Shown piece by piece: positions 4,055-64,000 of a stretch of 64,000 nt of DNA (positions within the stretch are counted from its first letter, which is position 1; the number at the start of each line of letters is the position of its first letter). Both the position numbers and the translations under genes were made by a program. Source of the stretch: Alphaproteobacteria bacterium RIFCSPLOWO2_01_FULL_40_26 (GTDB lineage Bacteria > Pseudomonadota > Alphaproteobacteria > Rickettsiales > UBA1997); assembly GCA_001767955.1 (NCBI GenBank), contig MEMO01000016.1, forward strand, positions 39,404 through 103,403, read 5' to 3'. Below the pieces are notes generated by a model. The model was not told the DNA's origin, made no database searches, and saw only the letters and a program-made list of their open reading frames with translations.

Positions 4055-4909
4055 ATGAAAAAACATTCTGCCTTCTCCCTGATCGAACTTTCCATCGTAA
4101 TTTTAATCATTGGTATTCTGGTTGCAGGTATAATGCAGGGAAGGTTGATGGTTAAAAAATCCCGCCGTTCCGCAGCGCAAGCGATTACAAAAAATTCTGT
4201 AGTTAACGAAATGTCCGGTCTTGCTTTGTGGTATGAAACTTCGCTTGAGAGTAGTTTCAAGGAAAGCGAAATGTCGGATGGAGGCAATGTTAGTGTTTGG
4301 CATGACAACAATCCTCAAGCTATCAATCGTAATAATGCCGATCAGGGAACGGCAGCAAACCAGCCAAAATTTTACGAAAATGTTTTTAACGGTGCGCTTC
4401 CCGCGCTGCGATTTGATGGGGTTGATGATGCGCTAACCACGGCAAATGGTTTTGATTCTGATTCAGAAAATGTGACAATTTTTTTGGTATGGCAATCCTC
4501 GCTTGATTCAACCTGGCAGGTAATAATCTCAAAAGGTTATACCCCGTCGCCATATCGCATTGCCATCACTGGGAATGCGCATTATTTAACCTATGCCGAT
4601 GCCATGAATAACGGCGCTTCCGCCAATTCAGCAATTATCACCGCAGCCAATAGTCTCAACATTATCTCCGCGAGACGAGCCAAAAATGGAACCATGCAAA
4701 TCTGGATTAATGGCTCATCCGGAGGCACTAATACTGACAGCAGCGGTAGCAATCTGATGACCACCACTGAATCACTTTGGATTGGCGGCTATCCATCCAA
4801 AAATTATGCTCAAGGCGATTTTGCCGAAATGATCATCTTCAAACGCGCTTTACTTACGGAAGAAAGACAAGCGGTTGAAAGCTACTTAAGCAAAAAATAC
4901 AACATATAA
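4055..4909 (+). CDS. prepilin-type N-terminal methylation domain fused to a LamG-like domain (paralog P1)
   Basis: MKKHSAFSLIELSIVILIIGILVAGI is a class III (prepilin) signal with Glu at +5. LamG-like motifs LPALRFDGVDDAL and GDFAEMIIFKRALLTEERQAVESYLSKKYNI. No Cys. Confidence 0.8.
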   Translation: MKKHSAFSLIELSIVILIIGILVAGIMQGRLMVKKSRRSAAQAITKNSVVNEMSGLALWYETSLESSFKESEMSDGGNVSVWHDNNPQAINRNNADQGTAANQPKFYENVFNGALPALRFDGVDDALTTANGFDSDSENVTIFLVWQSSLDSTWQVIISKGYTPSPYRIAITGNAHYLTYADAMNNGASANSAIITAANSLNIISARRAKNGTMQIWINGSSGGTNTDSSGSNLMTTTESLWIGGYPSKNYAQGDFAEMIIFKRALLTEERQAVESYLSKKYNI

Positions 4910-4934
4910 AATCTCTTAATTTCTTTAAAATTTT

Positions 4935-5795
4935 ATGAAAAAACATTCCGCCTTCTCCCTAATAGAACTCTCAATCGTCATCTTAATCATCGGTATCCTA
5001 GTCGCCGGTATAACCCAATCTTCCCGCCTGGTTAAAGCAATGAAGCTAAAAACCGCTCAAAACCTAACCAAAAGCTCTGCCGTTAACAGCATTAAAAATC
5101 TGACCATATGGTATGAAACAACCGTCGATGAAAGTTTCGCTGATAGTGAAGAAGAAAATAACACAGACATCAGCACCTGGAACGACATAAACCCACAATC
5201 ATCATCCAAAAGCAATGCCACCCAATCAAGCACCAAACCGCAATATATCGAAGGTGCGATGAATGGTCTTCCGGTTGTGAGGTTTAATGGAACTGATGAT
5301 TTCTTAAATTTCGACGGAACTCTACTCGTCAACACCAACTATACGATTTTTGTGGTGGAGCAGAGGAGGACTGGCACCGGTATTAACAAACATTTTCTTG
5401 GCGGATCCGGAGTGGCAACCAATACTAACCTGCATCTAGGATATCGTAACGATACGACAGTTACACAAGATCATTACAGCAATGCTATAAACTACACAAT
5501 CCCCGCCTACTCCTCCCCAATACCAAGAATCCACACTTTCTGGTTCAGCAACGCATCCGGAAATGGCAAAAAATACTGGCTTAATGGTGGAACAACCGCC
5601 GACGCATTCGACACTTCCCAAACAGCTTATGTGGCATCTTATGCTGGATCGGCAATTGGAAGATATGCTAGTACCAGCGACTACTTCAACGGCGACGTCG
5701 CCGAAATCATCATCTTCAACCGCGCTCTCAACACCGAAGAAAGACAAGCAGTTGAAAGCTATTTGAGCCAGAAATTTAATGTTAAAATTAGCTGA
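4935..5795 (+). CDS. prepilin-type N-terminal methylation domain fused to a LamG-like domain (paralog P2)
   Basis: N-terminus identical to P1 for the first 26 residues (MKKHSAFSLIELSIVILIIGILVAGI). VVRFNGTDDFL and GDVAEIIIFNRALNTEERQAVESYLSQKFNVKIS. No Cys. Confidence 0.8.
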   Translation: MKKHSAFSLIELSIVILIIGILVAGITQSSRLVKAMKLKTAQNLTKSSAVNSIKNLTIWYETTVDESFADSEEENNTDISTWNDINPQSSSKSNATQSSTKPQYIEGAMNGLPVVRFNGTDDFLNFDGTLLVNTNYTIFVVEQRRTGTGINKHFLGGSGVATNTNLHLGYRNDTTVTQDHYSNAINYTIPAYSSPIPRIHTFWFSNASGNGKKYWLNGGTTADAFDTSQTAYVASYAGSAIGRYASTSDYFNGDVAEIIIFNRALNTEERQAVESYLSQKFNVKIS

Positions 5796-6642
5796 TAAAA
5801 ACGCTGTAAGCATCGTTTAACAGGCGGGCGATTTGGCGGTTTTTGCCATTGGGAATTTTTTTGGAAATTTTCCGCCCGTCAATTTCCGCAATTGGTCTGA
5901 TAATCAAGCTGGAGCTGGTCAAAAACACTTCTTTTGCTTTCATCATTTCAGCGATTCCAAAATTTTTTTCTGCAGTTTTAAGACCATTTTCTTGCGCAAG
6001 TTTAAGCAAGCGATTGCGCGTGATGCCACACAAAATCAAATTGTCGGCCGGTTTGGTGATCAGAACATCATTTGCATCAACGATAAAAACATTGGCATAG
6101 CTTGCTTCAGTGATAACGCCATTTCTTACAAAAATTACATCATCAAAGCCGGAATCTTTGGCTTTCTGATTCATCAAAGTTGAGGCCAATAAATTCACGG
6201 TTTTGATATCGCATCTTTGCCATCTGATATCATCGTGAGTCATTGCCAGAAAGCCGCGCTCAAACTCTTCAGCGGAAACTTTTTTGCGTGGCGAAACTGT
6301 GGCGCAGATTGTTGGTTTCAAATCTTTTGGACAATATGGAATGCGATTTGTCTTGCCGCGCGTAATTTGCATATAGCAGGTTCCGCCCGCCATTTTGTTG
6401 CGTGAAAAAAGTTCAAGCTGAATTTTTTTTAATTCATCGGCGGAAAAATCATGCCCGATTTTTAATTCACGCAAAGAGCGAAAAAAACGCTCGAGATGAG
6501 CATCACCATCAATCAATTTTCCATTTTCAAAAAGCACAACTTCATAAACACCGTCGGCGAATTGAAAGCCACGATCTTCGATGTGAATGAGACATTTTTC
6601 ATGAGGCAAAAATTTGCCGTTTAGATAGCTGATTCTATTCAT
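5788..6642 (-). CDS. dat: class IV aminotransferase, D-amino-acid (D-alanine) transaminase-like
   Basis: EDRGFQFADGVYEVV motif and overall length match D-amino-acid aminotransferases. The 3' end overlaps convergent P2 by 8 nt. Confidence 0.75.
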   Translation of the reverse strand: MNRISYLNGKFLPHEKCLIHIEDRGFQFADGVYEVVLFENGKLIDGDAHLERFFRSLRELKIGHDFSADELKKIQLELFSRNKMAGGTCYMQITRGKTNRIPYCPKDLKPTICATVSPRKKVSAEEFERGFLAMTHDDIRWQRCDIKTVNLLASTLMNQKAKDSGFDDVIFVRNGVITEASYANVFIVDANDVLITKPADNLILCGITRNRLLKLAQENGLKTAEKNFGIAEMMKAKEVFLTSSSLIIRPIAEIDGRKISKKIPNGKNRQIARLLNDAYSVFIS

Positions 6643-8132: not shown

Positions 8133-9473
8133 CTACCAACGTATCTCGAATTTTTTGCGTAGGAAAATTGCTGCAGAATTTAGAATAATTAAAAATCCAA
8201 GTAGAACCAAAATTGCTGCTGCGGTTTTTTCGGCGAAACCTGATTCGGGTGAATCTGACCAAAGATAGATTTGCACCGGTAAGACTGATGTGGGATCGGT
8301 AAAATTTTGTGGGATATCGGCGATGAAAGCGACCATGCCAATCATCAAAAGTGGAGCAGTTTCGCCCAAAGCGCGCGAAATCGCCAAAATTGTTCCGGTC
8401 ATAATTCCCGGTACTGCAAGCGGTAAAAGATGATGCAAAGTGATCTGCATTTTTGAAGCGCCAAGAGCTGCAGCTCCATCACGAATTGAGTTTGGAATCG
8501 AACGAATAGTATTGCGTGTAGCGATAATAATAACCGGCAAAACCAGCATGAACAAAGTCATCCCGCCGACTAAAGATGAGGAACGCGGCAAATTCATAAA
8601 TTGCAGATAAACTGTTAATCCAAGCAGGCCGTAGATGATTGATGGAATTGCCGCGAGGTTATTGATGCTGATTTCAATTATGTCGGTAAAACGATTTTTT
8701 GGCGCGAATTCTTCAAGATAAAAGGCGCACATTATGCCAATTGGAAAAGCAAAAATCAGAAAAATTACCATCACCAAAAATGATCCGATCAAGCCAGCGC
8801 CAATGCCGGCAATTTCCGGTTCACGCGAATCGGCAAAAGTAAAAAATTTCCAGTTAAAAACTTTTCTTACCTGATTTTTTGTTTTCAGATCAGAAAGCCA
8901 GCGAATCTGATTGTCATTTAGTGAAGAGATATTTTGGTGTTTAAAAAACATATCGGCTTTTGATGCGGCACTTATCCAGAAAATTTTTAAATCGGGATTT
9001 TTCTTGATTTGTTCTTTTATCTCAAGGTTTGCGGCCTTGCTTACCAATTGATAAAGTGAGTTAATTTCAGCAAGTTTTGTGGCTTCGGGAAATCTTTGTC
9101 TCATTGCGTCTTTTATGGCTTGGCGATAATCATCTTCTTTCACGCTGATTTCCAAGGCGATTTCACTTCGGTAAAAATTGCTTTTGGCAAAAATCATAGC
9201 AAACAAAATCAGTAAAAATGCTAAAGCAAAGCCAACCGAAATCATGCCAAACAGCATAAATCGTGATTCGGCGGCATGACGCTTTTTTAGATTTCCAATT
9301 GTTCTAGAGCCTATCTTCAAATTCATTTGTCTTTGATTTTTTGTAAATTTTTGCTCATTTTTTTGAAGAATTTTTTGCAGTATGTCTAATACAGCTGCAA
9401 AATTCTTCAAAAAAGTCGCTAAAAATTTACAAAAAATCAAAGACAAATGAATTTGAAGACAGGCTCTAGCCAT
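8133..9473 (-). CDS. pstA: phosphate ABC transporter permease PstA (start uncertain: 9473 or 9326)
   Basis: C-terminal permease core (ISRALGETAPLLMIG) follows pstC. The first 49 codons are read through palindromic element G1. ATG 9473 overlaps the pstC stop by 8 nt. An alternative ATG at 9326 lies inside the element. Confidence 0.85.
   Translation of the reverse strand: MARACLQIHLSLIFCKFLATFLKNFAAVLDILQKILQKNEQKFTKNQRQMNLKIGSRTIGNLKKRHAAESRFMLFGMISVGFALAFLLILFAMIFAKSNFYRSEIALEISVKEDDYRQAIKDAMRQRFPEATKLAEINSLYQLVSKAANLEIKEQIKKNPDLKIFWISAASKADMFFKHQNISSLNDNQIRWLSDLKTKNQVRKVFNWKFFTFADSREPEIAGIGAGLIGSFLVMVIFLIFAFPIGIMCAFYLEEFAPKNRFTDIIEISINNLAAIPSIIYGLLGLTVYLQFMNLPRSSSLVGGMTLFMLVLPVIIIATRNTIRSIPNSIRDGAAALGASKMQITLHHLLPLAVPGIMTGTILAISRALGETAPLLMIGMVAFIADIPQNFTDPTSVLPVQIYLWSDSPESGFAEKTAAAILVLLGFLIILNSAAIFLRKKFEIRW
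9304..9469. mobile_element. MITE-like palindrome family G, copy G1
   Basis: Near-perfect 166-bp palindrome ctagagcctatcttcaaattcatttgtctttgattttttgtaaattttt...aaaaatttacaaaaaatcaaagacaaatgaatttgaagacaggctctag, flanked by TA. Confidence 0.85.
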
Positions 9474-14958: not shown

Positions 14959-15855
14959 ATGTCAGTTCTAATCAATAAAAACACCAAAGTTATTTGCCAG
15001 GGAATCACTGGTTCACAAGGCACTTTTCACACTGAACAAGCGCTTGCTTATGGTACTAAAATGGTTGGCGGTGTCACGCCTGGCAAGGGTGGAAGTCAAC
15101 ATCTTCATCTTCCGGTTTTTGACAGTGTTTTTGAAGCCAAACAAAAAACCGCTTGCAATGCTTCAGTGATTTACGTGCCGCCAGCTTTTGCTGCCGACGC
15201 CATTCTCGAAGCAATTGATGCCGAGATTGAACTGATTGTCTGCATCACTGAAGGCATCCCAGTGCTTGACATGGTAAAAGTGAAAAAATCTTTGTGCGGC
15301 TCAAAATCGCGTTTGATCGGCCCCAACTGCCCAGGCATAATCACTCCGGGTGAATGCAAAATCGGCATCATGCCCGGCCATATTCACAAGCGCGGCAAAA
15401 TCGGCATCGTTTCACGTTCCGGCACTTTAACTTACGAAGCAGTTCATCAAACAACCAATACTGGCTTGGGACAAAGCACCTGCATCGGCATTGGTGGTGA
15501 TCCGGTCAATGGCACCAGTTTTATTGATTGCCTTGATATGTTTTTGTCCGATCCGGAAACCGAAGCCATGATCATGATTGGCGAAATCGGCGGAACTGAC
15601 GAGGAAGAGGCTGCCGAATTCATAAAAGCCGAAGCTAAAAAGGGCCATAAAAAACCAATCGTCGGTTTCATCGCCGGCAGAACAGCTCCTCCGGGACGCA
15701 GAATGGGACATGCCGGTGCCATAATTTCCGGCGGCAAAGGCGGTGCGGAAGGAAAAATTGACGCAATGAAATCAGCCGGAATCACCGTCGCCGACAGCCC
15801 GGCAGCGCTTGGTGAAACCATGCTTAAATTACTAAAAAACCCCAATAACGCTTAA
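14959..15855 (+). CDS. sucD: succinyl-CoA ligase alpha subunit; last 4-5 codons and the stop come from repeat C1
   Basis: SRSGTLTYE and [12 protein letters not shown] motifs. The tail ...[11 protein letters not shown] is encoded by the element terminus ccccaataacgcttaa. Confidence 0.95.
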
Positions 15856-16073
15856 GGAATTATGGCTTAAGTCTACAAACTCTAAGTAAAACCAATAAAC
15901 TCCACCACACTGTCACCCCGCACTTGTTGCGGGGTCCATTTGGTCGCAACCAATAAAATCAAGTCTTTGACGAGATGGACCCCGCAACAAGTGCGGGGTG
16001 ACAGTGTGGTGAGATTTGTGATTTAGCTTAGAGTCTGTAAATTTGAATCTGGGTTTCTTAAACGTTATTGGGG
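15840..16073. repeat. composite palindrome C1 (family C shell with a family B core)
   Basis: Terminal inverted repeats ccccaataacgcttaag / cttaaacgttattgggg (15840-15856 / 16057-16073). The inner arms are also inverted. Confidence 0.85.
15902..16011. repeat. palindromic repeat family B, copy B1 (core of C1)
   Basis: ccaccacactgtcaccccgcacttgttgcggggtcca ... tggaccccgcaacaagtgcggggtgacagtgtggtg. Each arm is itself a hairpin (ccccgca cttgt tgcgggg). Confidence 0.9.
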
Positions 16074-16110
16074 TTAAAAAACTAATTTTAACACTAACCA
16101 CAGGAGACAT

Positions 16111-17318: not shown

Positions 17319-17325
17319 TATTGTG

Positions 17326-17423
17326 GCCATGTCGCAAATCAACTTCCTGAAAAATCTGAACCCTTGATTTACAAGGGCTCGTCGAGTTTAAAAATGGTAA
17401 GAAATGGGGATTTGCGACAGTCC
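17326..17423. repeat. palindromic repeat family E, copy E1 (intergenic)
   Basis: ccatgtcgcaaatc...cccttgatttacaaggg...gatttgcgacagtc. About 94 percent identical by eye to the reverse complement of copy E2 at 41387-41484. Confidence 0.9.
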
Positions 17424-17623
17424 CATTGTGAAAGACACAATATTTTTGATAACAACTAAAAAAATAGCAAACTCGGAAAGAAGTTTGAAACCTGAATTTT
17501 GTGCAAAAGTTCTCATGAAGAATTATTCGAAAAACATTTTGTTGATTTTTATTTAGGCGTAGAGTTATAGATTATTTGGTTGTTTAGTTTAACATTTTTT
17601 TAAATTTTATTTATAACATTTCT

Positions 17624-18493
17624 ATGAAACGCGCTTTTTCATTAATTGAGTTATCCATTGTAATTTTGATCATCGGCATTTTGGTTGCCGGCATTACTCA
17701 AAGCTCAAGGTTGGTTTCAGCAATGAGACTTAATTCAGCAAGAGCTTTAACTCAGAGCTCTCCAGTGAATTCAATTAAAGATCTAACACTGTGGCTGGAA
17801 ACTACCTCCACTAAAAGCTTTGCCACCGGCACCTCTACTTTTACCAATGTTGAAGAATTAGATAATGATACCTCTATCGGCAGATGGAATGACATCAATC
17901 CTCAAGCTTCTTCCAAAAATAATGCCACTAAATCAACATCTGATCAGGCAAAATATACCACCAATGCCATTAATGGTTTGCCGGCGGTAAGATTTAACGG
18001 AACCAATAATAATTTTGCTTTTGACGGCACTGTGCTTGTTAATACCAATTACACAATTTTTGTGGTTGAGCAAAGACGTTCCAATGGTAGTAATGGGTGG
18101 CTTCTCATTGGTTCCGCTAGTGCATCCAATACTAACTTACATGTTGGTTATCAAGACGACACTACCATGAGATATACTCATTTTAATAATAACCTGACCG
18201 ATACTGTTTCGGCTTATAGCTCGCCTGCTCCAAGGCTTCATATTTTTAGATTTGATCAAGGTAGCGGCAGACAATATTGGAGAAGTGATGACACAACCAA
18301 CCCTGGCGCTTCCGATGCACAAACAGCGCTTTTGGCTTCATATGCCAATTCATCAATCGGAGGATATGGCACTGATTGGTTTAATGGCGATATAGCCGAA
18401 ATCATCGCCTTCAATCGCGCTTTAAAATCTGAAGAAAGACAAGCGGTAGAAAGCTATTTGAGTCAAAAGTTCAATATTAAAATTAAATACTAG
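17624..18493 (+). CDS. prepilin-type N-terminal methylation domain fused to a LamG-like domain (paralog P3)
   Basis: MKRAFSLIELSIVILIIGILVAGITQSSRLV. AVRFNGTNNNF and GDIAEIIAFNRALKSEERQAVESYLSQKFNIKIKY. Closest to P2. No Cys. Confidence 0.8.
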   Translation: MKRAFSLIELSIVILIIGILVAGITQSSRLVSAMRLNSARALTQSSPVNSIKDLTLWLETTSTKSFATGTSTFTNVEELDNDTSIGRWNDINPQASSKNNATKSTSDQAKYTTNAINGLPAVRFNGTNNNFAFDGTVLVNTNYTIFVVEQRRSNGSNGWLLIGSASASNTNLHVGYQDDTTMRYTHFNNNLTDTVSAYSSPAPRLHIFRFDQGSGRQYWRSDDTTNPGASDAQTALLASYANSSIGGYGTDWFNGDIAEIIAFNRALKSEERQAVESYLSQKFNIKIKY

Positions 18494-35562: not shown

Positions 35563-36480
35563 CTATTTCCCGCCCCCTAAAAACGCGTAAGAAAGAATTT
35601 TATAACAAAGCTTCGCCGCTAGAAAATCGCAGGAATGAAGTTGTTTTATTGGCGCAAGCTCAACCACATCAGCGCCAACAAATTTGGAAATTTTGCCAGC
35701 TTCGCGGATGATATCGAGCGCGTCTTCCCACATCACGCCTCCTGGTTCCGGCGTGCCGGTTGCCTGCATTAAACTTGAATCAAATCCATCCAAATCAAAG
35801 GTAACAAAAACCGGACGATTTTTTAGCGGCGCAACAATTTTTTTTGCGTCCCATTTTCTTTTGTCTTTACCAAAGTGAATGGCGATGCGGTGGCGATTGG
35901 CTTCAAGATACGGAATTTCACTCGCGGAAATATTTCTGATGCCACATGAAATCAGTGTTGAAATCGGATAATCCATAACACGACGAAGCGCTGAAGCATG
36001 CGAATAATGCTCGCCATCATAACCATCGCGCAAATCGGCATGGGCATCAAAATGCAAAATTGCCAGATCGGGATATTTTTTGACGAAAGGCCGAATTGAG
36101 CCGGCGGTAATTGAATGCTCACCGCCAAGAATCAGCGGAAACTTTCCCGCTGCCAAAATTTTTTCTGTGATTTTTTCGAGCTGCTTCAGGGATTTTACAA
36201 CGGACGCGTGATCAATTTTTTGCTCTTTCATCGTCACCACGCCATATTTGCGAAAAGGTTCGCACCAAAATTCTTCATCAAAAAGCTCAACTTGCTTTGA
36301 GGCTTTGATAATGGCTGCAGGCCCTTTAGACGTACCTCCGCCATAGCTCACCGATTTTTCCAAACCAAATGGCACGACAACAACTTTTGCGTCATCAAGC
36401 GATTTCAGATATTTTTCTTCAATGCCAAGAAAGCCGGATTTTTGCGGTAGAAGATTTGAGAGAACAAAATTTTTGGTCAT
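35563..36480 (-). CDS. speB: agmatinase (ureohydrolase family)
   Basis: GGEHSIT, HFDAHADLRD, TFDLDGFD and EPGG manganese-site motifs. Confidence 0.85.
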   Translation of the reverse strand: MTKNFVLSNLLPQKSGFLGIEEKYLKSLDDAKVVVVPFGLEKSVSYGGGTSKGPAAIIKASKQVELFDEEFWCEPFRKYGVVTMKEQKIDHASVVKSLKQLEKITEKILAAGKFPLILGGEHSITAGSIRPFVKKYPDLAILHFDAHADLRDGYDGEHYSHASALRRVMDYPISTLISCGIRNISASEIPYLEANRHRIAIHFGKDKRKWDAKKIVAPLKNRPVFVTFDLDGFDSSLMQATGTPEPGGVMWEDALDIIREAGKISKFVGADVVELAPIKQLHSCDFLAAKLCYKILSYAFLGGGK

Positions 36481-37670
36481 AAAAAATTCAAAACATTAAC
36501 ATGTCCCATCTTGCGCCCGGCAACAATTTTCTCTTTGCCGTAAAGATGAATTTTTGCACGCGGATTTTTGTAAAATTTGTCCAGATTTTTTACTTCATCG
36601 CCGATTAAATTTTTCATAAAACCGCAAGAATGAAATTTTGTTGAACCAAGCGGAAGAGCAGTAATAGCGCGGATCAATTGCTCAAATTGTGAAGTAACCG
36701 CCCCATCCATCGAAAAATGTCCGGAGTTGTGCGGTCTTGGCGCCAACTCATTTACGAGCAATTCACTGCCAACAACAAAAAATTCAACCGCCAAAATTCC
36801 AACCAAATTAATTTCTTTGGCAATTTTTTTTGCCAGGCTTTGCGCCTTTATTCTCAAGCCTTTTGGGATTTGTGCCGGATAAAAACTTTGATCCAAAATG
36901 CCGTTTTTGTGAATGTTGGTTAACGGCTCATAAGCAGCAATTTCACCATTTTTTGAACGCGCAACTATCACCGAAATTTCCGAATCAAATGGACAAAATT
37001 TTTCCAGAATTAATTTTGGACCCCGCAACAAGTGCGGGGTGACAGGCTTCGGAGTGATGCTAGCGCTTGTCACCCCGCACTTGTTGCTTGTCACCCCGCA
37101 CTTGTTGCTTGTCACCCCGCACTTGTTGCTTGTCACCCCGCACTTGTTGCGGGGTCCATCTATCAAACTACTCCAGACTCTATCAGCATCCACAGCGTTT
37201 TTCAAAACAAACTGCCCCTTGCCATCATAACCCATCATGGCGGTTTTTAAAATGGCTTTGCCAAATTTTTTTAGATTTTTTTGCAGAACTTCACGACTTG
37301 GAATTTCAGCATATTCCGTGGCTTTTATGCCAATCGAATTAAGAAAATTTTTTTCCAAAATACGATTTTGTGTGATTTTTAAAATTTGCGGCTTCGGACA
37401 GACTTCAACTTGTGAAGCAAGATAATCAGCGGTTTCAAAAGGGATATTTTCAAATTCAAAAGTGGCGATATCGACCATCTTGCTAAATTTTTTCAGCGCC
37501 ATTTTGTCGGAATAATCAGCATTGATTATTTGATTGGTTACAAAACTCGCCGGAGAATTTTTTTGATCGCTAAACACAACGCTGCGAAAGCCCATCATAT
37601 GCGCATAAAAACAGGTCATGCGTCCCAATTGCCCGCCGCCAATGATACCAATGGTTGTGATTTTTTTCAT
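36477..37670 (-). CDS. purK: N5-carboxyaminoimidazole ribonucleotide synthase carrying an in-frame 47-codon repeat insertion
   Basis: ATG 37670 gives MKKITTIGIIGGGQLGRM. ATP-grasp core GYDGKGQ and C-terminal HLYGK...GRKMGHV. The insert GPRNKCGVTS(NKCGVTS)x3...VTPHLLRGP is encoded by repeat B2. Confidence 0.9.
   Translation of the reverse strand: MKKITTIGIIGGGQLGRMTCFYAHMMGFRSVVFSDQKNSPASFVTNQIINADYSDKMALKKFSKMVDIATFEFENIPFETADYLASQVEVCPKPQILKITQNRILEKNFLNSIGIKATEYAEIPSREVLQKNLKKFGKAILKTAMMGYDGKGQFVLKNAVDADRVWSSLIDGPRNKCGVTSNKCGVTSNKCGVTSNKCGVTSASITPKPVTPHLLRGPKLILEKFCPFDSEISVIVARSKNGEIAAYEPLTNIHKNGILDQSFYPAQIPKGLRIKAQSLAKKIAKEINLVGILAVEFFVVGSELLVNELAPRPHNSGHFSMDGAVTSQFEQLIRAITALPLGSTKFHSCGFMKNLIGDEVKNLDKFYKNPRAKIHLYGKEKIVAGRKMGHVNVLNFL
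37018..37158. repeat. palindromic repeat family B, copy B2, with a 4x 21-nt internal tandem array, inside purK
   Basis: ggaccccgcaacaagtgcggggtgac...(cttgtcaccccgcacttgttg)x4...cggggtcc, about 141 bp (47 codons). Confidence 0.92.
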
Positions 37671-37727
37671 AGCTTCAAAGAGAAAGCGCGGCAAGCTAGG
37701 AAGTGAGACAACATTTTCAACAAATTT

Positions 37728-38429
37728 ATGCCGCAAAAATTCCAACAATTAAAAAAGGCGAAACGCTTGAAAAAATCTTCGCAGAAATGGCTGTTGCGAC
37801 AAATTAATGATCCTTTTATTGAGCGCGCCAAAGCTGAAGGATGGCGCTCTCGTGCTGCTTTCAAGATTATTGAAATTGATCAGAAATTTAAAATTTTTAA
37901 AAAAGGAAAAATCGTGGTTGATCTTGGCGCTGCGCCGGGAGGATGGTCGCAATATGCGGTGCAAAAAGTGGGTGAGGGCAATGTGATTGCGATTGACCTT
38001 TTGCCAATTGATCCGATTCCGGGAGTGAAATTTTTTGTTCAGAATTTTTTGTCAGAAGATGCGGCAAAAAAAATAATTTCCGGACTGGAAGGAAAATGCG
38101 ATATTCTGCTTTCCGACATGGCCGCAAACACCATGGGCGATAGACAAACCGATCATTTACGCATCATTGCACTGCTCGAAGAATCGCTAAATCTGGCGGA
38201 AAAAATTTTACGCCAAGGCGGATGTTTTGTGGGAAAAATTTTTCAAGGCGGAAGTTCCAACGAAATTCTAAAAAAACTCAGAAAAAACTTTTCGACCGTA
38301 AAATATTTCAAACCCGAATCTTCACGCAAAGATTCGGCAGAAACTTATTTGGTAGCATCGGGATTCACTCCGTATGACTCTGAAGAGGTGGAAGAAGGGA
38401 GGGGGGAGTTGTTTCGACAATTGCGCTAA
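37728..38429 (+). CDS. rlmE: 23S rRNA (uridine2552-2'-O)-methyltransferase RlmE/FtsJ
   Basis: SSQKWLLRQINDPFIERAKAEGWRSRAAFK and SAM motif VVDLGAAPGGWSQ. Confidence 0.92.
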   Translation: MPQKFQQLKKAKRLKKSSQKWLLRQINDPFIERAKAEGWRSRAAFKIIEIDQKFKIFKKGKIVVDLGAAPGGWSQYAVQKVGEGNVIAIDLLPIDPIPGVKFFVQNFLSEDAAKKIISGLEGKCDILLSDMAANTMGDRQTDHLRIIALLEESLNLAEKILRQGGCFVGKIFQGGSSNEILKKLRKNFSTVKYFKPESSRKDSAETYLVASGFTPYDSEEVEEGRGELFRQLR

Positions 38430-40102: not shown

Positions 40103-41122
40103 TTATTTTCCCGCAATCCCAAGTTTTTCAAAAAGTCTGCGATCGCGCTCCATTTCCGGGTTTGAGGTGGTAAGTAATTTTTCGCCATAAAAAATCGAAT
40201 TAGCTCCGGCAAGAAAACACAAAGCTTGGGTTTGCTCATTCATATTTTCACGGCCGGCTGACAAACGCACCACAGATTTTGGCATCATGATGCGCGCAAC
40301 GGCAATGGTTCGGACAAATTCGAATTGATCGAGATCTTCAACTTTTTCAAGCGGCGTGCCCTTGACTTTCACCAACATGTTGATTGGAACTGATTCGGGA
40401 TGCTTCGGCAAATTAGCGAGCACGATCAGCATTTTTGCCCGATCTTCACGCATTTCTCCCATGCCGACAATTCCGCCCGAACAAACATTCAGGCCGGCTT
40501 CGCGCACGTTTTTGAGGGTGTTGAGACGATCCTCAAAACTGCGCGTGGAAATAATTTCCGAATAAAATTCTGGCGAAGAGTCGATATTGTGGTTGTAGTA
40601 ATCAAGCCCGGCATCCTTGAGTTTCTTGCTTTGCGAGTCGGTTAGCATTCCAAGCGTCATACAGGTTTCAAGGCCGGTTTTTTTTACCGCATCGACAATT
40701 TCACAAATCTTTTTTACATCGCGATCATGAAGATTTCTCCATGCCGCTCCCATGCAAAACCTTGAAGCACCAGCTTCTTTCGCTGCTTTGGCGGCATCAA
40801 GAATTTTTGAAATTTCCATCAGCGCAGATTTTTCAAGACCAGTGTTATAATGCGCCGATTGCGGACAATATTTGCAATTTTCCGGACAGGAACCGGTTTT
40901 GATGCTTAAAAGCGTGCTGATTTGCACCGCATTCGGATTGTGATTTTGGCGATGAATTTCCGCCGCTTTGAAAACAAGATCGGAAAATGGCAATACAAAA
41001 AGTTGTTCGACTTCCGCAACCTTCCAATCATGACGAGTATTAAAATCGTAAGATAAAACGGGTAATTCCGTTGATTCCGTTTGGCAGAGTTCTTTCATTA
41101 TTCTTTCCAGATAATATGGCAT
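40103..41122 (-). CDS. bioB: biotin synthase (alternative start 41098)
   Basis: Radical-SAM [30 protein letters not shown]. Confidence 0.93.
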
Positions 41123-42183
41123 TTGAAGAGCTCGCCCATTTGATCAGGCGCGATTAAACGATCAATAGCGGAATTTTCGTTTGGCAATTTTTTGCGGCGC
41201 TCTTCGATGCCAAGCGAAATTAAAAATTCCCTTTGCGTTAATAATTGCGAATTCAGATTAAAATTTTTGGCGATTTTATCGAGCGCGGAAAAATCAACAT
41301 GGGCGGTAATGTCGCAATCTTTTTCAAACAGGCTAACTTTGCGGTGATTTTTTACAGCTTGCAAAGTGTTGGCAAATTCATTTTGAGACTGTCGCAAATC
41401 CCCATTTCTTACCATTTTTAAACTCGACGAGTCCTTGTAAATCAAGGGATCAGATTTTTCAGAAAGTTGATTTGCGACATGGTCATTTTGGACATAGCCA
41501 TAATCAAAATTGATGGCGATTCCACCGTGAATATTCAAGGCTTCGCAGAGTTGTGTCATAAATTTTCGCGCAGCGAAACTATATTCAAAAACCGCACCGA
41601 TTCTAGCGAGGGAGGTTATTTCTTTTTCCACAAACTGATGAAGTTTCAAATCAAAATTCCTGATCACAAACCTTTCTGAATCAATCAAACGCTCGCACCA
41701 GCCAATGTCGGTTTTGATGAATTGGTCGATGGGAAAACAATCAAAAAGTTCGTTGGAAAGGAAAAAAATTTGCCCATTTTTTTGTTGCAGAAACTCATCA
41801 AAACTTTCATGCCATTCAACTTCAAAATCCTTCAATTTTTCCTGCTGAATTTTTCTTAAAACCGGATTGATCTCAATGATGTGAAGTTCTGCAAACTCAA
41901 GAAAATCAATGGCTTGTGAGATTTTTTTATCGGCAAATTTTTTGATTGTGATCAGAATATCAAAAAACAAAGTTCCCTTTCCCGCGCCCATTTCCACCAG
42001 AGCAACTTTTGACTTTTTTGCAGAAAAAATCTGCAAAAAACAGGCGGCAATTAATTCACCAAACACCTGAGAAATTTCCGGAGAAGTTATGAAATCGGCG
42101 AGAGGATTTTTGGTGTGGTAATAGCCTTGTTCTTTATCAAACAAGGCTTCTTGCATGAAATGTGAAATACCTATGGCCGCCAA
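41098..42183 (-). CDS. class I SAM-dependent methyltransferase, NDUFAF7/MidA (DUF185)-like, carrying an in-frame repeat insertion
   Basis: [27 protein letters not shown] and DYGY...TLQAVKNH...DITAHVDFS pattern. The segment [35 protein letters not shown] is encoded by repeat E2. Confidence 0.8.
41387..41484. repeat. palindromic repeat family E, copy E2, inside the methyltransferase gene
   Basis: gactgtcgcaaatcccca...tccttgtaaatcaaggga...gatttgcgacatggtc, reverse-complement orientation relative to E1. Confidence 0.9.
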
Positions 42184-42938
42184 TTGAGGAAATTTTTTAA
42201 CAATTTTAATCCCGTTTCACCGCTTTTTTCGGGGTGGAATTGCACACCAAAAATATTTTCCTTCGCCACAATTGCGGTAAGTTTATCGCCATATTCAACT
42301 TGCGCCAAAACGTTATTTTCATTCTGACAAACAAAGTGATAGGAATTGGCAAAATAAAAATGTTCACCATTTTCTATACCTTGCAGAACCGCATGTTTAT
42401 TGGGTTTAATAATAATATCGTTCCAGCCCATATGCGGGATTTTTAGAATCGACCCCCCATCCCCCTCCAGGGGGAGGTCGCGCATACGCGTCGACTTCTT
42501 CGTTAAGAGAGATTGAGTTTGCGAGAAGAGAGATTGAGTTTGCGGGAGGTCGCGCATACGCGTCGACTTCTTCGCTGAATTAGCATCGAGAATTTGAGGA
42601 ATTTTTTCAACATGCCCGTTGATAAATCCCAATCCCTGATGCTCGCCATTTTCATATCCGATATTGGCCAAAACCTGCATGCCGACACAAATTCCAAGAA
42701 AAGGTTTTTTTTCTTTTAAAACCTGATTGCGCATTTCCGGCAAAAATCCTTCCATGTTTTTAAGACTATCCATGCAATCACCAAACGCACCAACGCCGGG
42801 CAAAATCAGATAATTGGCTGATTTGAGATCGGAAATTTTATTCGAAACCGTGATTTCTTGGGGATTGGCAATATGCGATAGAGCATTGGCAACCGAACAC
42901 ACATTGCCGGCGCCATAATCGATGATGAGTATCTTCAT
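42171..42938 (-). CDS. hisH: imidazole glycerol phosphate synthase glutamine amidotransferase subunit HisH carrying an in-frame repeat insertion
   Basis: [26 protein letters not shown] (catalytic Cys), PHMGWN, GVQFHPEKS. An insert of about 45 aa, ...KKSTRMRDLPQTQSLFSQTQSLLTKKSTRMRDLPLEGDGGS, is encoded by repeat F1. Confidence 0.9.
   Translation of the reverse strand: MKILIIDYGAGNVCSVANALSHIANPQEITVSNKISDLKSANYLILPGVGAFGDCMDSLKNMEGFLPEMRNQVLKEKKPFLGICVGMQVLANIGYENGEHQGLGFINGHVEKIPQILDANSAKKSTRMRDLPQTQSLFSQTQSLLTKKSTRMRDLPLEGDGGSILKIPHMGWNDIIIKPNKHAVLQGIENGEHFYFANSYHFVCQNENNVLAQVEYGDKLTAIVAKENIFGVQFHPEKSGETGLKLLKNFLNWRP
42450..42584. repeat. repeat family F, copy F1 (partly duplicated), inside hisH
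   Basis: gaccccccatccccctccaggg-ggaggtcgcgcatacgcgtcgacttcttcg-(agagagattgagtttgcg)x2-ggaggtcgcgcatacgcgtcgacttcttcg. Boundaries approximate. Confidence 0.88.
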
Positions 42939-46945: not shown

Positions 46946-47109
46946 TAGAGCCTGTCTTAAAACCCAACGTGTCTCGATTTTCCATAAATTTTGAGCGACT
47001 TTTTGGCAAAATTTTGCCGCTGTATTCAACATACTGCAAAAAATTTTGCCAAAAAACGAGCCAAAATTTATGGAAAATCGAGGCGCGGTGGGTTTTAAGA
47101 CAGGCTCTA
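46946..47109. mobile_element. MITE-like palindrome family G, copy G2
   Basis: tagagcctgtcttaaaacccaac..tctcgattttccataaattttg...caaaatttatggaaaatcgag..gtgggttttaagacaggctcta, 164 bp, TA-flanked. Confidence 0.85.
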
Positions 47110-47152
47110 GAGCCTGTGTCTGGAATATTTCGTGCATCGTGCTTCGGTAATA
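47110..47152. repeat. family A-like half element (A3) abutting G2
   Basis: gagcctgtgtctggaatatttcgtgcatcgtgcttcggtaat. It resembles the left arm of A2 (cttgtgtct...tcgtgcttcgtgc). No matching right arm. Confidence 0.55.
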
Positions 47153-49870: not shown

Positions 49871-50107
49871 CCTCGATAACGCTTAAGAAAATTTGTAATC
49901 ACTTTACTCTCCATGGGTCATTTACCACTCACAAAATATTACCCCTCACAAAATATTACCCCTCACCCCAACCCTCTCCCACAAGGGGAGAGGGAGTAGC
50001 GCCGAATTCGGACTAACTCCCTCTCCCCTTGTGGGAGAGGGTTGGGGTGAGGGGTAATGTTCTTCAAAGAGTAAGGTTGAGAGCATTTTTCCTAAGCGTT
50101 ATTGGGG
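49871..50107. repeat. composite palindrome C2 (family C shell with family D core 49956-50057)
   Basis: Termini cctcgataacgcttaag / cctaagcgttattgggg. Core ttacccctcaccccaaccctctcccacaaggggagagggag...ctccctctccccttgtgggagagggttggggtgaggggtaa. Short tandem ttacccctcacaaaata units on the left arm. Confidence 0.9.
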
Positions 50108-56260: not shown

Positions 56261-56425
56261 TAAGAACCTGTCCTAAATCTTTTTTAACCCCATATTTTGC
56301 CCTGTTTTGGCTTATTTTTTGCCAAAATTTTTCAAAATATGTCCATATATTTATCAAAATTTTGACAAAAAAACGCTCAAAACATGACAAAATCTGTGAT
56401 TAAAAAAGATCTAGGACAGGTTCTA
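56261..56425. mobile_element. MITE-like palindrome family G, copy G3
   Basis: taagaacctgtcctaaatctttttt...aaaaaagatctaggacaggttcta, 165 bp, TA-flanked. It contains the annotated ATG of the AsmA-like gene. Confidence 0.8.
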
Positions 56426-59400
56426 AAACAAAAATTGCTATCTACCATCAAATCGGAAGCTGTCAAAATCGGCGCTGTGGTTTTTATCTCCATAATTCTG
56501 CTGGTTATGATTCTGCCGCTTTTTTTTGATAATTCGGCGTTGAAATTTCAGATTGCGCAAAAAATCAGCCATATTTCAAACGCAAATTTTTCAATTAAAG
56601 GAGGGCTAAAAATAGCATTGCTACCATATCCAAAAATCACTGCCTATGATGTGTTTTTGCAAAATTATCAGACAAAATCTGTAGATGAAAATGGGCAAAA
56701 AATTTATAATTTTTATGCCAAATCCGTTACCGTGAAATTTCCGATTTTTCATGATTCACAAGATAATCCGATAGATAAAATAATTTTCTCCGATGTAGTT
56801 CTCACAAGACATTATACCACAAATAATGATCTTGCCCGCCAAAATAAATTTACGGAAAACCTGACACAATTCACCAAAAATTCCACCAACAATTCCAATG
56901 AAAAAAAAGTAGGATCAGGAATCAGTGAAAAATTATTTCCAATTGAAGACATAAAATCCTCTCACTTTTCAGCCACATCATTACCGCAAATAACCATCAA
57001 AAATGGTGAAGCAATTTTATATGATAAATTTGAACGCAAGAAGGAAATCAAATCCATCAATGCTGAAATAGAATGGAGCAAGGAAAGAATTATCACTGCA
57101 GGAAATTTTCAAAGCGAAGAGGTAAAAAGCGATTTTAAAATATTGGCAAAATTTAATTCGAAATCAGGAAAACATGACTCAATTTTAGAGTTGGCTTCTC
57201 CGCTTATACAACTGCACGCAAGCGGAAATTTTACTTCAGAAAATCGCGGGATCACGGCTAGTGATTTTAAGGGCAAAATTGAAGCGGAAATTTTTGAACT
57301 GAAATCCGCCTATCAAAGCTATTTCAAAAATAATGACTTGCTGGCGCAAAAATTAAAATACAACGCCAAGCCAATAAAAATCAGCGCTGATATTGCAAAT
57401 AGCGGCAAAGAAATTTCCATCGCAAATTTGAATGTGATTTCCGATGTGGCAAAGGGAAATGGCAATATCAATCTCGATTTCAATCTCGATTTCAATCTCG
57501 ACTTCACTGGCACAAATAAAGTGACAACAATTGACGCCATGCTGTCTTTTGAGAATCTTGATCTCGATAATTTATGGTCAACAGACACAGTCCAAACAAC
57601 AGATGCCGTTAACACAAAAGAAGCTCAAACTGAAGAAACTCAAATTACAAACGGGGAGGATAAAACACAGGATTCACAAGATTTAAGCCTCAGCACAAAA
57701 ATCAAAAATTTTGATCTGGCCGCTGAAATCAAAATCGCCAATGTCAAATATCGCCAGGGTGAAATCAAAGATGCCGACATTTATCTAACCATTTCAAAAA
57801 ATGGTGAAATCATGATATTGCCAATGATTTTCAGGATTCCGGGAGATGGAATTTTACGCATCAATGGCGTTGTCGACAACTCTTTGGCCTTTCCAAAATT
57901 CATCGGCAAAATTGATGCTTCCGGCAAAAGCATGAAAGATATTTTTAAGTGGCTGAATATCGAATCACAAAATCTGAAATATGACAATCTCGGACAATAC
58001 AACCTTTACTCCGATGTCATGCTTTTGCCAAACAACCTGTCTCTCAACAATCTCTATCTCAATATCAACAATGGCACAAGCGAGCTGCTCGGTGAAATCA
58101 AGGCACAAAGTCAAAGTAAAACAACAACCATAATTAGCCGCTTTGAAGTCGGAAATTTCAACATTGACGATTATTTCCTCACCTCGGGACAAAATGTTTA
58201 TTTGTCCTATGGATCTCTGCTAAAAAAGATGTTCTGGCTTAACAATATCTCATCAAACAATGAGCTTAATTTAAAGTTCGATCGTTTGGTTTACAAAGGA
58301 GAGGAATTTCCGGAGCAATCGCTGAAATTGAAGTTCGGACGCGGTTATTTGCAGATTTCTGATCTTAATCTCAAATCACAAAACACCGACTTGAACGCCA
58401 ATATGACCATTGATATTAGCGACAAAAACCCACGCTTTGAAATTGACGCCAAAGGTGAAAATTTCCTTTATGAAACTACACAAAAAAGTGAATTGATTAA
58501 AGATGAAAAACAGAAACCCAAAAATTTTCTTGATCAGTTTTACACTTTACCATCGCTTGAGGGATTCAATGGCAAAGTTTCATTCGATTTTGGCAATGTC
58601 ATCATGGATAATCTTACACTCAAAAACGTTAAATTTGCCGGAAAACTAAAAGATGGAAATATCGAAAAATCAGAATTCGCTTGTGATGCATATGATGGAA
58701 AATTCAGCTACAAGGGCACAATCGGCATCAAAAACAATAAGACCATTAACGGCAATTTTTCATTCAGCGATGCTCAGTTGCAGCCACTTTTATCCGACAT
58801 GTTTGGTATCAAAAACATTTCCGGAATCGCCAATATCTCAGCAAACATCACTTCAATTGCCGATAAGAAATCCGATTTCGCCAAACAATTAAGCAGTGAA
58901 GTAAAATTCAGCACCAATGCACCAATAGTTGAAGGATATGGTTTAAGCGATCTGGTAAAAAAAATGCTCGCCAAACAAATCTATCAAAATGAGCTGCGCG
59001 ATCCGGAAAAAATTTTGTTCAACAAGGAAAGCAAAACCATCTTCAAACAGGCCAGTGGAACGATTCAGATTAACAATGGACAAAATGGAAGAATGCGCAT
59101 CAATGTTAATGCACCGGCAATCAACGCCATTTTATCCGGTACGATTAATGCTGAAAACATAACGATTGATACTTTGTTTAATGCCATCTTCATTACCGGA
59201 AATCATCAAAAACAAACTCCAATCAACATCGCAACCAATCTCAAAGGGCCAACCAACAACATACAACAAAACACCAACTTTGATCAGGTGAAGCAATATC
59301 TCGGTTTAATAAAAGGCACAAACATTATACCCACACCATTAGAACCTCCAACACAGCCAAATCAGCAGCAGCTGATATATGATCAAACACAATTGAGATT

Positions 59401-59494
59401 GCCGCCGGAAGTAACGCAAATACAAAATCAGGCCGAATCCATGAAATCCATGCTACCTGCACAAACAGAGCAAACAGAACAACCAGTACAATGA
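56384..59494 (+). CDS. AsmA-family outer-membrane biogenesis / lipid-transport-like protein (start uncertain)
   Basis: N-terminal TM (IGAVVFISIILLVMILPLFF) followed by a long beta-rich, Asn-rich region of about 1000 aa, as in AsmA-like proteins. An alternative TTG start at 56435 lies just outside element G3. Confidence 0.7.
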   Translation: MTKSVIKKDLGQVLKQKLLSTIKSEAVKIGAVVFISIILLVMILPLFFDNSALKFQIAQKISHISNANFSIKGGLKIALLPYPKITAYDVFLQNYQTKSVDENGQKIYNFYAKSVTVKFPIFHDSQDNPIDKIIFSDVVLTRHYTTNNDLARQNKFTENLTQFTKNSTNNSNEKKVGSGISEKLFPIEDIKSSHFSATSLPQITIKNGEAILYDKFERKKEIKSINAEIEWSKERIITAGNFQSEEVKSDFKILAKFNSKSGKHDSILELASPLIQLHASGNFTSENRGITASDFKGKIEAEIFELKSAYQSYFKNNDLLAQKLKYNAKPIKISADIANSGKEISIANLNVISDVAKGNGNINLDFNLDFNLDFTGTNKVTTIDAMLSFENLDLDNLWSTDTVQTTDAVNTKEAQTEETQITNGEDKTQDSQDLSLSTKIKNFDLAAEIKIANVKYRQGEIKDADIYLTISKNGEIMILPMIFRIPGDGILRINGVVDNSLAFPKFIGKIDASGKSMKDIFKWLNIESQNLKYDNLGQYNLYSDVMLLPNNLSLNNLYLNINNGTSELLGEIKAQSQSKTTTIISRFEVGNFNIDDYFLTSGQNVYLSYGSLLKKMFWLNNISSNNELNLKFDRLVYKGEEFPEQSLKLKFGRGYLQISDLNLKSQNTDLNANMTIDISDKNPRFEIDAKGENFLYETTQKSELIKDEKQKPKNFLDQFYTLPSLEGFNGKVSFDFGNVIMDNLTLKNVKFAGKLKDGNIEKSEFACDAYDGKFSYKGTIGIKNNKTINGNFSFSDAQLQPLLSDMFGIKNISGIANISANITSIADKKSDFAKQLSSEVKFSTNAPIVEGYGLSDLVKKMLAKQIYQNELRDPEKILFNKESKTIFKQASGTIQINNGQNGRMRINVNAPAINAILSGTINAENITIDTLFNAIFITGNHQKQTPINIATNLKGPTNNIQQNTNFDQVKQYLGLIKGTNIIPTPLEPPTQPNQQQLIYDQTQLRLPPEVTQIQNQAESMKSMLPAQTEQTEQPVQ

Positions 59495-62208: not shown

Positions 62209-62466
62209 CTAAGAATAAACTTCACGACGATGAGCAACTCTAACCACAGTGACTACCAATTGAACCCCTTCTCTTGCACATAAAAGGCGATAGTCTCCAA
62301 CACGAAATTTGTAAAATCCTGTCAAATCTCCGGCTAATGGTACGAGATATTTTTCAGGAGCAGTCTGGAGCTTTTCTACTATTGCCCTGTCTATCCTTTT
62401 TCTGATTTCCGGTGTTAGTTTAGAAAAATCTTTTTCAGCTTTTTTAGTGAAATGGATTTGCCACAT
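62209..62466 (-). CDS. relE: RelE/ParE-family type II toxin
   Basis: 85 aa, FTKKAEKDFSKL...FYKFRVGDYRLLC...VVRVAHRREVY, a typical RelE/StbE pattern. Confidence 0.85.
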   Translation of the reverse strand: MWQIHFTKKAEKDFSKLTPEIRKRIDRAIVEKLQTAPEKYLVPLAGDLTGFYKFRVGDYRLLCAREGVQLVVTVVRVAHRREVYS

Positions 62467-62715
62467 TTAGAGCTTGTATTTTTTTCTGATTTTATCGTAT
62501 GGAACGGATTTCTGTTTGGATTTTTTGAATTCATCATAGGCTTTTTTTGCCTCGTGATAATCCTCAATATCTTCAAGCTTTTCAGCCAAAAGTTTTTCCA
62601 AGGCTTTTTTGATAAAATAACTTTTAGATCTCTCCTCCATGTTGCAAATCATGGTTAATCCTTGATCTAAATGATTTGGAATTTGTGCAGAAATTGTAAT
62701 AACGCGTTCTTGCAT
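62467..62715 (-). CDS. ribbon-helix-helix (CopG/RelB-like) antitoxin
   Basis: 82 aa, RVITISAQIPNHLDQGL...RSKSYFIKKALEKLL is RHH-like. Abuts the toxin start with no gap. Confidence 0.75.
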   Translation of the reverse strand: MQERVITISAQIPNHLDQGLTMICNMEERSKSYFIKKALEKLLAEKLEDIEDYHEAKKAYDEFKKSKQKSVPYDKIRKKYKL

Positions 62716-63862: not shown

Positions 63863-64000
63863 TCCCAATAACGCTTAAGAAAATTTGTAATCACTTTACT
63901 CTTTCTAGGTCATTTACCCCTCACAAAATATTACCCCTCACAAAAAAATATTACCCCTCACCCCAACCCTCTCCCACAAGGGGAGAGGGAGTTATACCAA
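63863..64000. repeat. composite palindrome C3 (family C terminus plus family D core), truncated by the window end
   Basis: tcccaataacgcttaagaaaatttgtaatcactttactc...ttacccctcaccccaaccctctcccacaaggggagagggag is nearly identical to the left half of C2. Confidence 0.88.

Follow-up and report, generated by a model that had tools for sequence, protein, structure and literature searches.

A 64,000-bp stretch of DNA from Alphaproteobacteria bacterium RIFCSPLOWO2_01_FULL_40_26 (GenBank assembly GCA_001767955.1, contig MEMO01000016.1, positions 39,404-103,403; the whole stretch is called the window below) encodes three paralogous proteins, P1, P2 and P3, in which a prepilin-type signal is fused to a domain resembling laminin G (LamG) and concanavalin A (ConA). 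We put the probability at about 50% that these proteins are modular type IV pilins, probably minor subunits that are processed by the prepilin peptidase PilD and show lectin heads on a filament as candidate adhesins. The evidence comes from the N-terminal signal, from a structure model of the head, from the evolution of the family and from pilus genes elsewhere in the genome.

Three prepilin-like genes

P1 (bp 4055-4909) and P2 (bp 4935-5795) lie in tandem on the plus strand, the start of P2 being 25 nt past the stop codon of P1, and P3 (bp 17624-18493) lies on the same strand. The three open reading frames (ORFs), predicted earlier in a first-pass annotation of the DNA, were confirmed as intact and encode proteins of 284, 286 and 289 aa, respectively, all about 31 kDa in size. 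P3 is 63% identical to P2; P1 is the most divergent paralogue, with 43% identity to P2 and 39% to P3.

The class III signal peptide of P1 (bp 4055-4135) consists of the leader MKKHSA, a predicted cleavage site between Ala and Phe and then FSLIELSIVILIIGILVAGIM, with Glu at position +5. That of P3 (bp 17624-17698) has the shorter leader MKRA, the same predicted cleavage site and then FSLIELSIVILIIGILVAGIT. In other words, FSLIELSIVILIIGILVAGI follows MKKHSA in P1 and P2 and MKRA in P3, and residues A6-I26 (P1 numbering) are identical in all three proteins, including Ala at -1, Phe at +1 and Glu at +5. The Pfam model N_methyl (PF07963, cut-off 21.2 bits) was passed by P1 (25.5 bits) and P2 (25.7 bits), and P3 was 0.1 bit short of it (21.1 bits). 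TIGR02532 (cut-off 16.3 bits) was passed by all three (21.8, 22.1 and 24.6 bits for P1, P2 and P3, respectively), which confirmed the class III signal with Glu +5 and Ala -1 that the annotation had described. A degenerate DNA pattern back-translated from AFSLIEL had three matches in the window, exclusively in P1, P2 and P3, against 0.30 expected by chance.

The proteins contain no cysteine and no C-terminal disulfide loop of the D-region type. A disulfide-bonded D-region is not universal among pilins. Behind the signal, the motifs W.D.NPQ, RF(D/N)G and GD.AE.I.F.RAL..EERQAVESYLS.K(F/Y)N are present in P1, P2 and P3. With Laminin_G_3 (PF13385, cut-off 27.6 bits) the proposed LamG domain was recognised only in P1 (30.9 bits, residues 122-270); P2 remained below the cut-off (18.1 bits) and P3 gave no match. 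P1-P3 combine the N-terminal IPR012902 motif with a domain that is not specific to type IV filaments, which is the definition of a modular pilin (PMC8179133).

Fold of the head domain

An AlphaFold2 model of P2, built on an alignment of 43 family sequences, had a mean predicted local distance difference test (pLDDT) score of 93.2 and a predicted template modelling (pTM) score of 0.88. The leader and alpha-1 helix occupy residues 1-46 (bp 4935-5072, plus strand), with a long helix assigned by DSSP to residues 9-46. This helix is followed by a ConA-like/LamG jelly-roll beta-sandwich (residues 56-261, bp 5100-5717), the loops of which vary more than any other part of P2. After a strand of the LamG_3 type, GDVAEIIIFNRAL, the model ends in a conserved C-terminal helix (residues 267-281, bp 5733-5777), EERQAVESYLSQKFN.

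Comparison of the model with the PDB by Foldseek gave 135 matches with E<=1e-3, and a lectin-type jelly roll was involved in 50 of the 50 matches listed. Among them were the lectin domain of trypanosome (trans-)sialidase, the Hc fragments of tetanus and botulinum toxins, CBM40, domain 4 of AbnA and the tailspike of cyanophage Pan3 (E 5.8e-9). The minor pilin PilC of Streptococcus sanguinis was found at ranks 38 (7oa7, E 3.5e-5) and 48 (7oa8, E 9.9e-5). The combination of an alpha-1 helix and a jelly roll expected in the first-pass annotation was thus borne out by the model. When the PDB was searched by sequence with the family profile, pilin matches covered only the first 25-45 residues or so (E 0.015-0.8), so that the head domain was found by fold comparison only. 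In the 43-sequence alignment 37 members matched PF07963 and 17 matched Laminin_G_3 at E<=0.01. Mainly on the basis of the structure model, assignment of the P1-P3 heads to the ConA-like/LamG two-sheet jelly-roll fold is supported. The heads may bind carbohydrate, the fold alone being no proof of lectin activity.

Size, conservation and divergence of the family

P2 had 1,970 relatives at E<=1e-3 in a set of 5.8 billion proteins. The best match other than P2 itself was 60% identical, and most relatives had either no name or the name 'prepilin-type N-terminal cleavage/methylation domain-containing protein'. Among the GTDB species genomes, 391 stretches encode relatives. The best 80 of these 391 come almost entirely from freshwater or groundwater metagenome-assembled genomes (MAGs) that are labelled Rickettsiales or Alphaproteobacteria, or are mislabelled 'Rickettsia typhi', 'Rhizobium sp.' and 'Lentimonas sp.'. 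Public MAGs with the family and with synteny to the window bear the titles 'Rickettsia typhi', 'Rhizobium sp. Q54', 'uncultured Rhizobium sp.' or 'Lentimonas sp.'; these titles (loci L007-L009, L020, L021, L025, L070 and L073 among others) look like artefacts of taxonomic labelling of Gamibacteraceae-like genomes. We found no description of this Gamibacteraceae family in the literature.

A hidden Markov model (HMM) of the family, which scored P1-P3 with E values from 4e-96 to 9e-137 (P3, 3e-119), detected 126 copies in the window and 78 loci of relatives, often in tandem arrays that reach 5-6 genes. Housekeeping genes recur around them (nuo genes, rpoD, the RNase E gene, radC and a histidine kinase gene). 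Two more members, which are more divergent, were found in DNA of the same Rifle population. One encodes 291 aa (L107:783-1742, minus strand) and is 36-39% identical to P1-P3, and the other is a C-terminal fragment (L118:1-447). Together with P1-P3 these bring the number of copies in the genome to at least five.

Of 272 unique members, all collected with a motif that included Glu +5, 258 have Ala and 14 have Gly at -1, and 271 have Phe at +1. The 43-sequence alignment has F7, S8, L9, E11 and S13 as invariant positions. Residues 7-30 (alpha-1N) are the most conserved part, with a column entropy of 0.95 bits compared with 1.5-1.8 bits elsewhere; the highest entropy is that of the sandwich loops (1.78 bits), which vary more than the strands. 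The absence of cysteine, described earlier as a property of the family, applies to P1-P3 and is not a general trait, as 150 of the 272 members have no Cys and 70 have two.

P1 and P2 share 38-58% identity with their syntenic orthologues, compared with 62-85% for the flanking genes. These values, the tandem arrays and the variable loops agree with the variable character that had been ascribed to the family. The N- and C-terminal ends of P1-P3 had been described as conserved even at the nucleotide level. The ends are indeed conserved, but their nucleotide identity is only 66-78%, and synonymous sites (pS 0.5-1.0) have reached saturation at both ends as well as in the middle. A recent gene conversion or an exchanged cassette as the source of the conserved ends was rejected, as synonymous sites are saturated everywhere and each paralogue has its own positional orthologues. 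P1, P2 and P3 are therefore old paralogues, the ends of which are conserved by selection on the peptide and not by recent gene conversion.

An exhaustive search with the family profile yielded 45,899 proteins at E<=1e-3, of which 3,286 had E<=1e-30. The top matches are proteins of 2,000-6,500 aa in which the head domain (profile positions of about 50-285) is repeated 4-16 times, and this subtype of the domain is spread over many phyla (e.g. in the Thermoguttaceae). Laminin_G_3 was confirmed in four of the giant multi-LamG proteins. The head of P1-P3, of about 210 aa, is of the same domain subtype as that of the giant surface proteins. Unlike P1-P3, most of the giants, which include proteins from other phyla, have ordinary signal peptides, and 76 of 87 long matches lack a prepilin motif. 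Some giants with 5-16 LamG copies do have a prepilin-like start, such as KRSGFSLVEVALVF or NGGYSLAELSIS, by regular expression only and with no match to Pfam N_methyl: P0126 (3863 aa), P0160 (3173 aa), P0199 (2420 aa), P0164 (1335 aa; recorded as 'LamG domain-containing protein [Rickettsiales bacterium]') and P0248 (1373 aa).

Host genome and pilus machinery

The proteins of the window are encoded identically on contigs of four assemblies from the Rifle aquifer (GCA_001767865.1, GCA_001768805.1, GCA_001768015.1 and GCA_001768925.1), and a protein identical to P3 is present on 24 Rifle contigs. In GCA_001768015.1, P1 and P2 are located on contig MEMR01000018.1. Castelli et al. (2024) list this assembly as a 'Candidatus Gamibacteraceae' bacterium of 1.45 Mb with 40.1% GC (PMC10847448). 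Its sister assembly RIFCSPLOWO2_01_FULL_40_26 was placed in the Gamibacteraceae by Schoen et al. (2022), a group sister to the Paramecium ectosymbiont Deianiraea and suggested to have a possibly extracellular symbiotic lifestyle (PMC9352585).

The genes of the window, read from their translations, are housekeeping genes only. Six-frame ORFs of the window and the 78 loci of relatives (1.13 Mb) were searched by phmmer (E<=1) with GspC-O, HofB, HofC and PpdD of Escherichia coli, and no homologue of GspD, GspE, GspF or GspO was found; regular expression scans for the GspE Walker A motif, the PilD motif GxGDxK and the secretin motif were empty. For the window itself, with no HofB or HofC homologue either, this agrees with the earlier statement that pilus machinery is absent nearby. 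The only prepilin-like ORFs in the window and the flanks of the relatives are members of the family.

The rest of the genome was sampled by means of a repeat resembling a miniature inverted-repeat transposable element (MITE), two 95% identical copies of which are present in the window (bp 17324-17425 and bp 41384-41485, the latter on the minus strand). Its 22-nt core retrieved 44 metagenome stretches, 43 of which have about 40% GC, comprising about 0.5 Mb. GspO and GspE queries had no match in this DNA except VirB11, the gene for which is present in these stretches. One stretch (L109) encodes a 398-aa platform protein of the T2SSF family (PilC/GspF) with a Pfam score of 154.9 bits. Its best equivalog model was that of GspF (267 bits, below the cut-off of 424). 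The protein is identical to A2887_04495 of Alphaproteobacteria bacterium RIFCSPLOWO2_01_FULL_40_26, and its orthologues across the lineage are 70-82% identical. The gene (L109:2836-4029, minus strand, the same as L144:10001-11197) lies outside the window, on contig MEMR01000015.1 of GCA_001768015.1, the assembly that also contains the P1/P2 contig. It is solitary, its neighbours being def and purN to one side and, to the other, a bioD-like gene and argB. It thus seems that genes for the type IV filament are dispersed one by one between housekeeping genes.

According to the Supplementary Data of Schoen et al. (2022), RIFCSPLOWO2_01_FULL_40_26 has one pilB, one pilC, two pilD and one mshL-like secretin gene, and lacks pilT, pilQ and pilMNOP (PMC9352585); these values were read by counting columns against the order of the header. 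The presence of components of type IV pili in the clade of Deianiraeaceae and Gamibacteraceae was also reported by Castelli et al. (2024) (PMC10847448). Absence of a peptidase and of assembly genes from the entire genome, which the first-pass annotation had named as the result that would reduce the signal to a plain anchor, is not what was found, because the assembly contains the platform gene and the published table lists pilB, pilD and a secretin. A pilin-like orthogroup in the same table (row 0244Y) reaches 57 and 48 copies in two MAGs of the Mitibacteraceae and 13-22 in the Athabascaceae; the main text of that paper does not use the word 'pilin' (PMC9352585). Large expansions of pilin-like genes may be a wider trait of early-branching Rickettsiales.

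Neighbouring genes, repeats and other loci

At its 3' end P2 overlaps by 8 nt with a convergent D-aminotransferase gene (bp 5788-6642, minus strand). P3 is preceded by a tRNA-Arg gene and a copy of the MITE-like repeat and is followed by a convergent ccmB. A scan for promoters and terminators around P1 and P2 was uninformative: promoter-like sites were fewer than in shuffled sequence, and terminator-like sites were about equal in number.

Dispersed repeats of the window belong to several families resembling MITEs or Rickettsia palindromic elements, 100-170 bp in length and 78-95% identical between copies. The MITE-like element has the terminal inverted repeats GTCGCAAATC ... GATTTGCGAC; besides the copy between tRNA-Arg and P3, one lies inside an ORF (bp 41098-42183) and is translated in frame. 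Other families are represented by bp 49876-49997 and 63868-63992, bp 1719-1820 and 2341-2441, and bp 9303-9468 and 46946-47111. Repeats of 29-31 nt are common to the spacer between sucD and recA (bp 15838-16076) and to bp 37017-37161 within a purK-like ORF (bp 36477-37748, minus strand), where they are translated in frame as four copies of NKCGVTS. Contigs L105, L126 and L128 of the same population contain copies of the spacer element with 99% identity. A hisH-like ORF has a similar internal duplication (bp 42472-42574; KSTRMRDLP...QTQSL).

A ParE/RelE-type toxin gene (85 aa, PF05016) and an upstream gene for an 82-aa partner are located between typA and rlmN (bp 62209-62715, minus strand). 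For two ORFs of about 1,035 aa no Pfam family is recorded. The first (bp 56384-59494, plus strand) reads like a large envelope protein, and the second (L085:11443-14550) is located just upstream of the window. On one Rifle contig variant a YhcG_C domain was called between sucD and P3 (L090:1503-1886) and recA was not, recA being there in the window and on the other contigs. On L143 and L144 (positions 1069-2598) a restriction-modification pair (N6_N4_Mtase and a BglII-type endonuclease) separates Oxidored_q6 (nuoB) from Complex1_30kDa (nuoC).

Discussion

For P1-P3 we infer processing by PilD, incorporation into a filament, a position at its tip and a ligand for the heads. The hydrophobic alpha-1N segment would insert the protein into the inner membrane, where the leader of 4-6 residues would be cut between Ala and Phe by the PilD of the genome and Phe1 would be N-methylated. 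The PilB/PilC machine, encoded by scattered genes, would load the subunit into a type IV filament, which would leave the cell through the MshL-like secretin. As minor pilins, the proteins would carry their heads at or near the tip of the filament; given the bulk of the head (about 230 aa) and by analogy with S. sanguinis PilC, a place as tip or minor adhesin subunits is the most likely one. The divergent paralogues may offer different specificities for glycans or surfaces, and the heads would then be candidate attachment factors of a putative protist ectosymbiont of the Gamibacteraceae.

PilD processing followed by loading is the most economical reading, because of the near-universal Phe +1, Glu +5 and the retention of FSLIELSIV at 35-60% overall identity, together with the platform protein and the reported peptidases. 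Expansion of the family, rapid divergence of orthologues and variable loops are suggestive of adhesin-like evolution and favour the same reading. Several observations weigh against it. P1-P3 have Ala in place of the canonical Gly at -1, a conservative exception. In the AlphaFold2 model the head is a full LamG sandwich directly after alpha-1, with no separate pilin sheet of 4-5 strands. The family genes are never linked to machinery genes in the window and the 1.13 Mb of flanks, and no conventional short prepilin (major pilin) was found there or in the partly redundant 0.5 Mb or so of same-population DNA. Only pilC was confirmed in the assembly containing P1 and P2, pilB, pilD and the secretin being taken from the published table for the sister MAG, and the missing pilT and pilMNOP may indicate a T2SS-like (type II secretion system) or MSH-like (mannose-sensitive haemagglutinin) system rather than a classical retractile pilus. 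Regarding the residue at -1, Ala is the only replacement for Gly known to leave some processing by PilD-type peptidases.

The substitution at -1, which occurs in 95% of members, the lack of linkage to machinery genes and the lack of a pilin beta-sheet module would also fit a plain, uncleaved signal anchor, P1-P3 then being LamG proteins tethered to the inner membrane in the periplasm and unrelated to any filament. However, the invariant Phe +1 and Glu +5 would not be needed in such a protein, and FSLIELSIV is near-identical across hundreds of proteins that are otherwise 35-60% identical; alpha-1N as the most conserved segment is more than a plain membrane anchor would need. In addition, the genome keeps a conserved PilC and, according to the literature, two pilD genes, which need substrates, and we regard an anchor as improbable. 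Even more doubtful is that P1-P3 are the principal subunits, each with a lectin head, of a thick lectin-coated fibre. Members of the family are the sole prepilin-like ORFs in all DNA covered here, their invariant Glu +5 is what is expected with a neighbour above in the filament, and the four pilin-like proteins tabulated for RIFCSPLOWO2_01_FULL_40_26 by Schoen et al. (PMC9352585) compare with at least five family members in our data. But known major pilins are far less bulky than a 46-residue helix that carries a head of about 230 aa, many coexisting paralogues with 36-63% identity would be unusual for a major subunit, and modelling placed the modular pilins of S. sanguinis at the tip only (PMC9934059); as the genome was sampled in part, a short major pilin may have been missed.

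A possible but unlikely alternative is that P1-P3 serve a T2SS-like or MSH-like endopilus as pseudopilin-like components or as cargo, being processed by PilD and acting in the periplasm or at the outer membrane rather than on a long external pilus, for example as subunits of a piston tip or as anchored lectins that bind envelope or secreted polysaccharide. The shared prepilin signal with Glu +5 resembles that of the minor pseudopilins GspH/I/J/K, the platform protein is closest to the GspF model, the published gene set combines an mshL/gspD-like secretin with the lack of pilT and pilMNOP, and the sampled DNA has no conventional major pilin. Beyond the generic domain, the best partial NCBIfam matches were to the N-termini of GspG (12.7-17.5 bits, cut-off 88.85) and GspH (16.8-18.7 bits, cut-off 80). 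Yet at 17-19 bits against 80-89 no GspG/H/I/J/K equivalog cut-off was approached, and the GspF cut-off was likewise not reached by the platform protein. Similarity to T2SS pseudopilins is limited to the first 25-45 residues or so, and there is no gsp operon. GspK, which caps the pseudopilus and has a bulky extra domain, lacks Glu +5, and its insert is alpha-helical and not a jelly roll. At least five divergent copies per genome and the fast divergence of the loops fit surface recognition better than a housekeeping secretion function.

As minor pilins, P1-P3 have a characterised counterpart in S. sanguinis PilC, a pilin with a lectin module and a solved structure, which binds glycans and is part of a tip complex (PMC9934059). 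In both, a class III signal peptide precedes a beta-sandwich of the ConA-like lectin type (7OA7/7OA8 for PilC). Unlike P1-P3, however, PilC is a 52.8-kDa protein with a short pilin moiety and an Ig-like module before the lectin, and is encoded by a single gene in the pil locus of a monoderm, whereas P1-P3 are multi-copy and scattered among the housekeeping genes of a diderm. P2 and PilC are about 11% identical, and Ala at -1 is another difference from PilC. In a catalogue of modular pilins from monoderms and diderms, the combination of IPR012902 and PF13385 is one of the 15 commonest architectures (Raynaud et al. 2021, PMC8179133), and P1, with both Pfam models above cut-off, has exactly this architecture. 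The first-pass annotation had expected such fusions in the PVC (Planctomycetes-Verrucomicrobia-Chlamydiae) group rather than in a reduced alphaproteobacterium and had considered an undescribed filament; in view of the catalogued distribution and the solved example, neither idea is supported. That catalogue is a database census without characterised members, to which the Gamibacteraceae family is mostly invisible, since so few of its sequences reach Laminin_G_3 even at E<=0.01.

The pilin-LamG architecture and a characterised lectin-module pilin are therefore already known. Particular to the family described here are the direct fusion of alpha-1 to LamG, the Ala at -1, the large expansion in Gamibacteraceae and the full unlinking from scattered machinery. 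We consider it a speculative and rather improbable extension that the LamG-pilins are the main or only substrates of a reduced, scattered system of PilB, PilC, PilD and secretin, one PilD being specialised for cleavage between Ala and Phe. They might then form a lectin-studded filament or switchable host-recognition heads for attachment to protists, the mega-pilins of 1,300-3,900 aa with 5-16 LamG repeats being the extreme of the same system.

The results leave the general picture of type IV filaments unchanged. Domain censuses undercount modular pilins, as most members of the family are below the Laminin_G_3 threshold and are recognisable by structure only. The significance of the finding is mainly ecological. 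The Gamibacteraceae are uncultured relatives of Deianiraea and bear on the origin of host association in the Rickettsiales. A large, fast-diverging set of pilins with lectin heads would be an obvious candidate for their repertoire of attachment to hosts or surfaces, and it would offer concrete targets for asking whether these bacteria live attached to protists.

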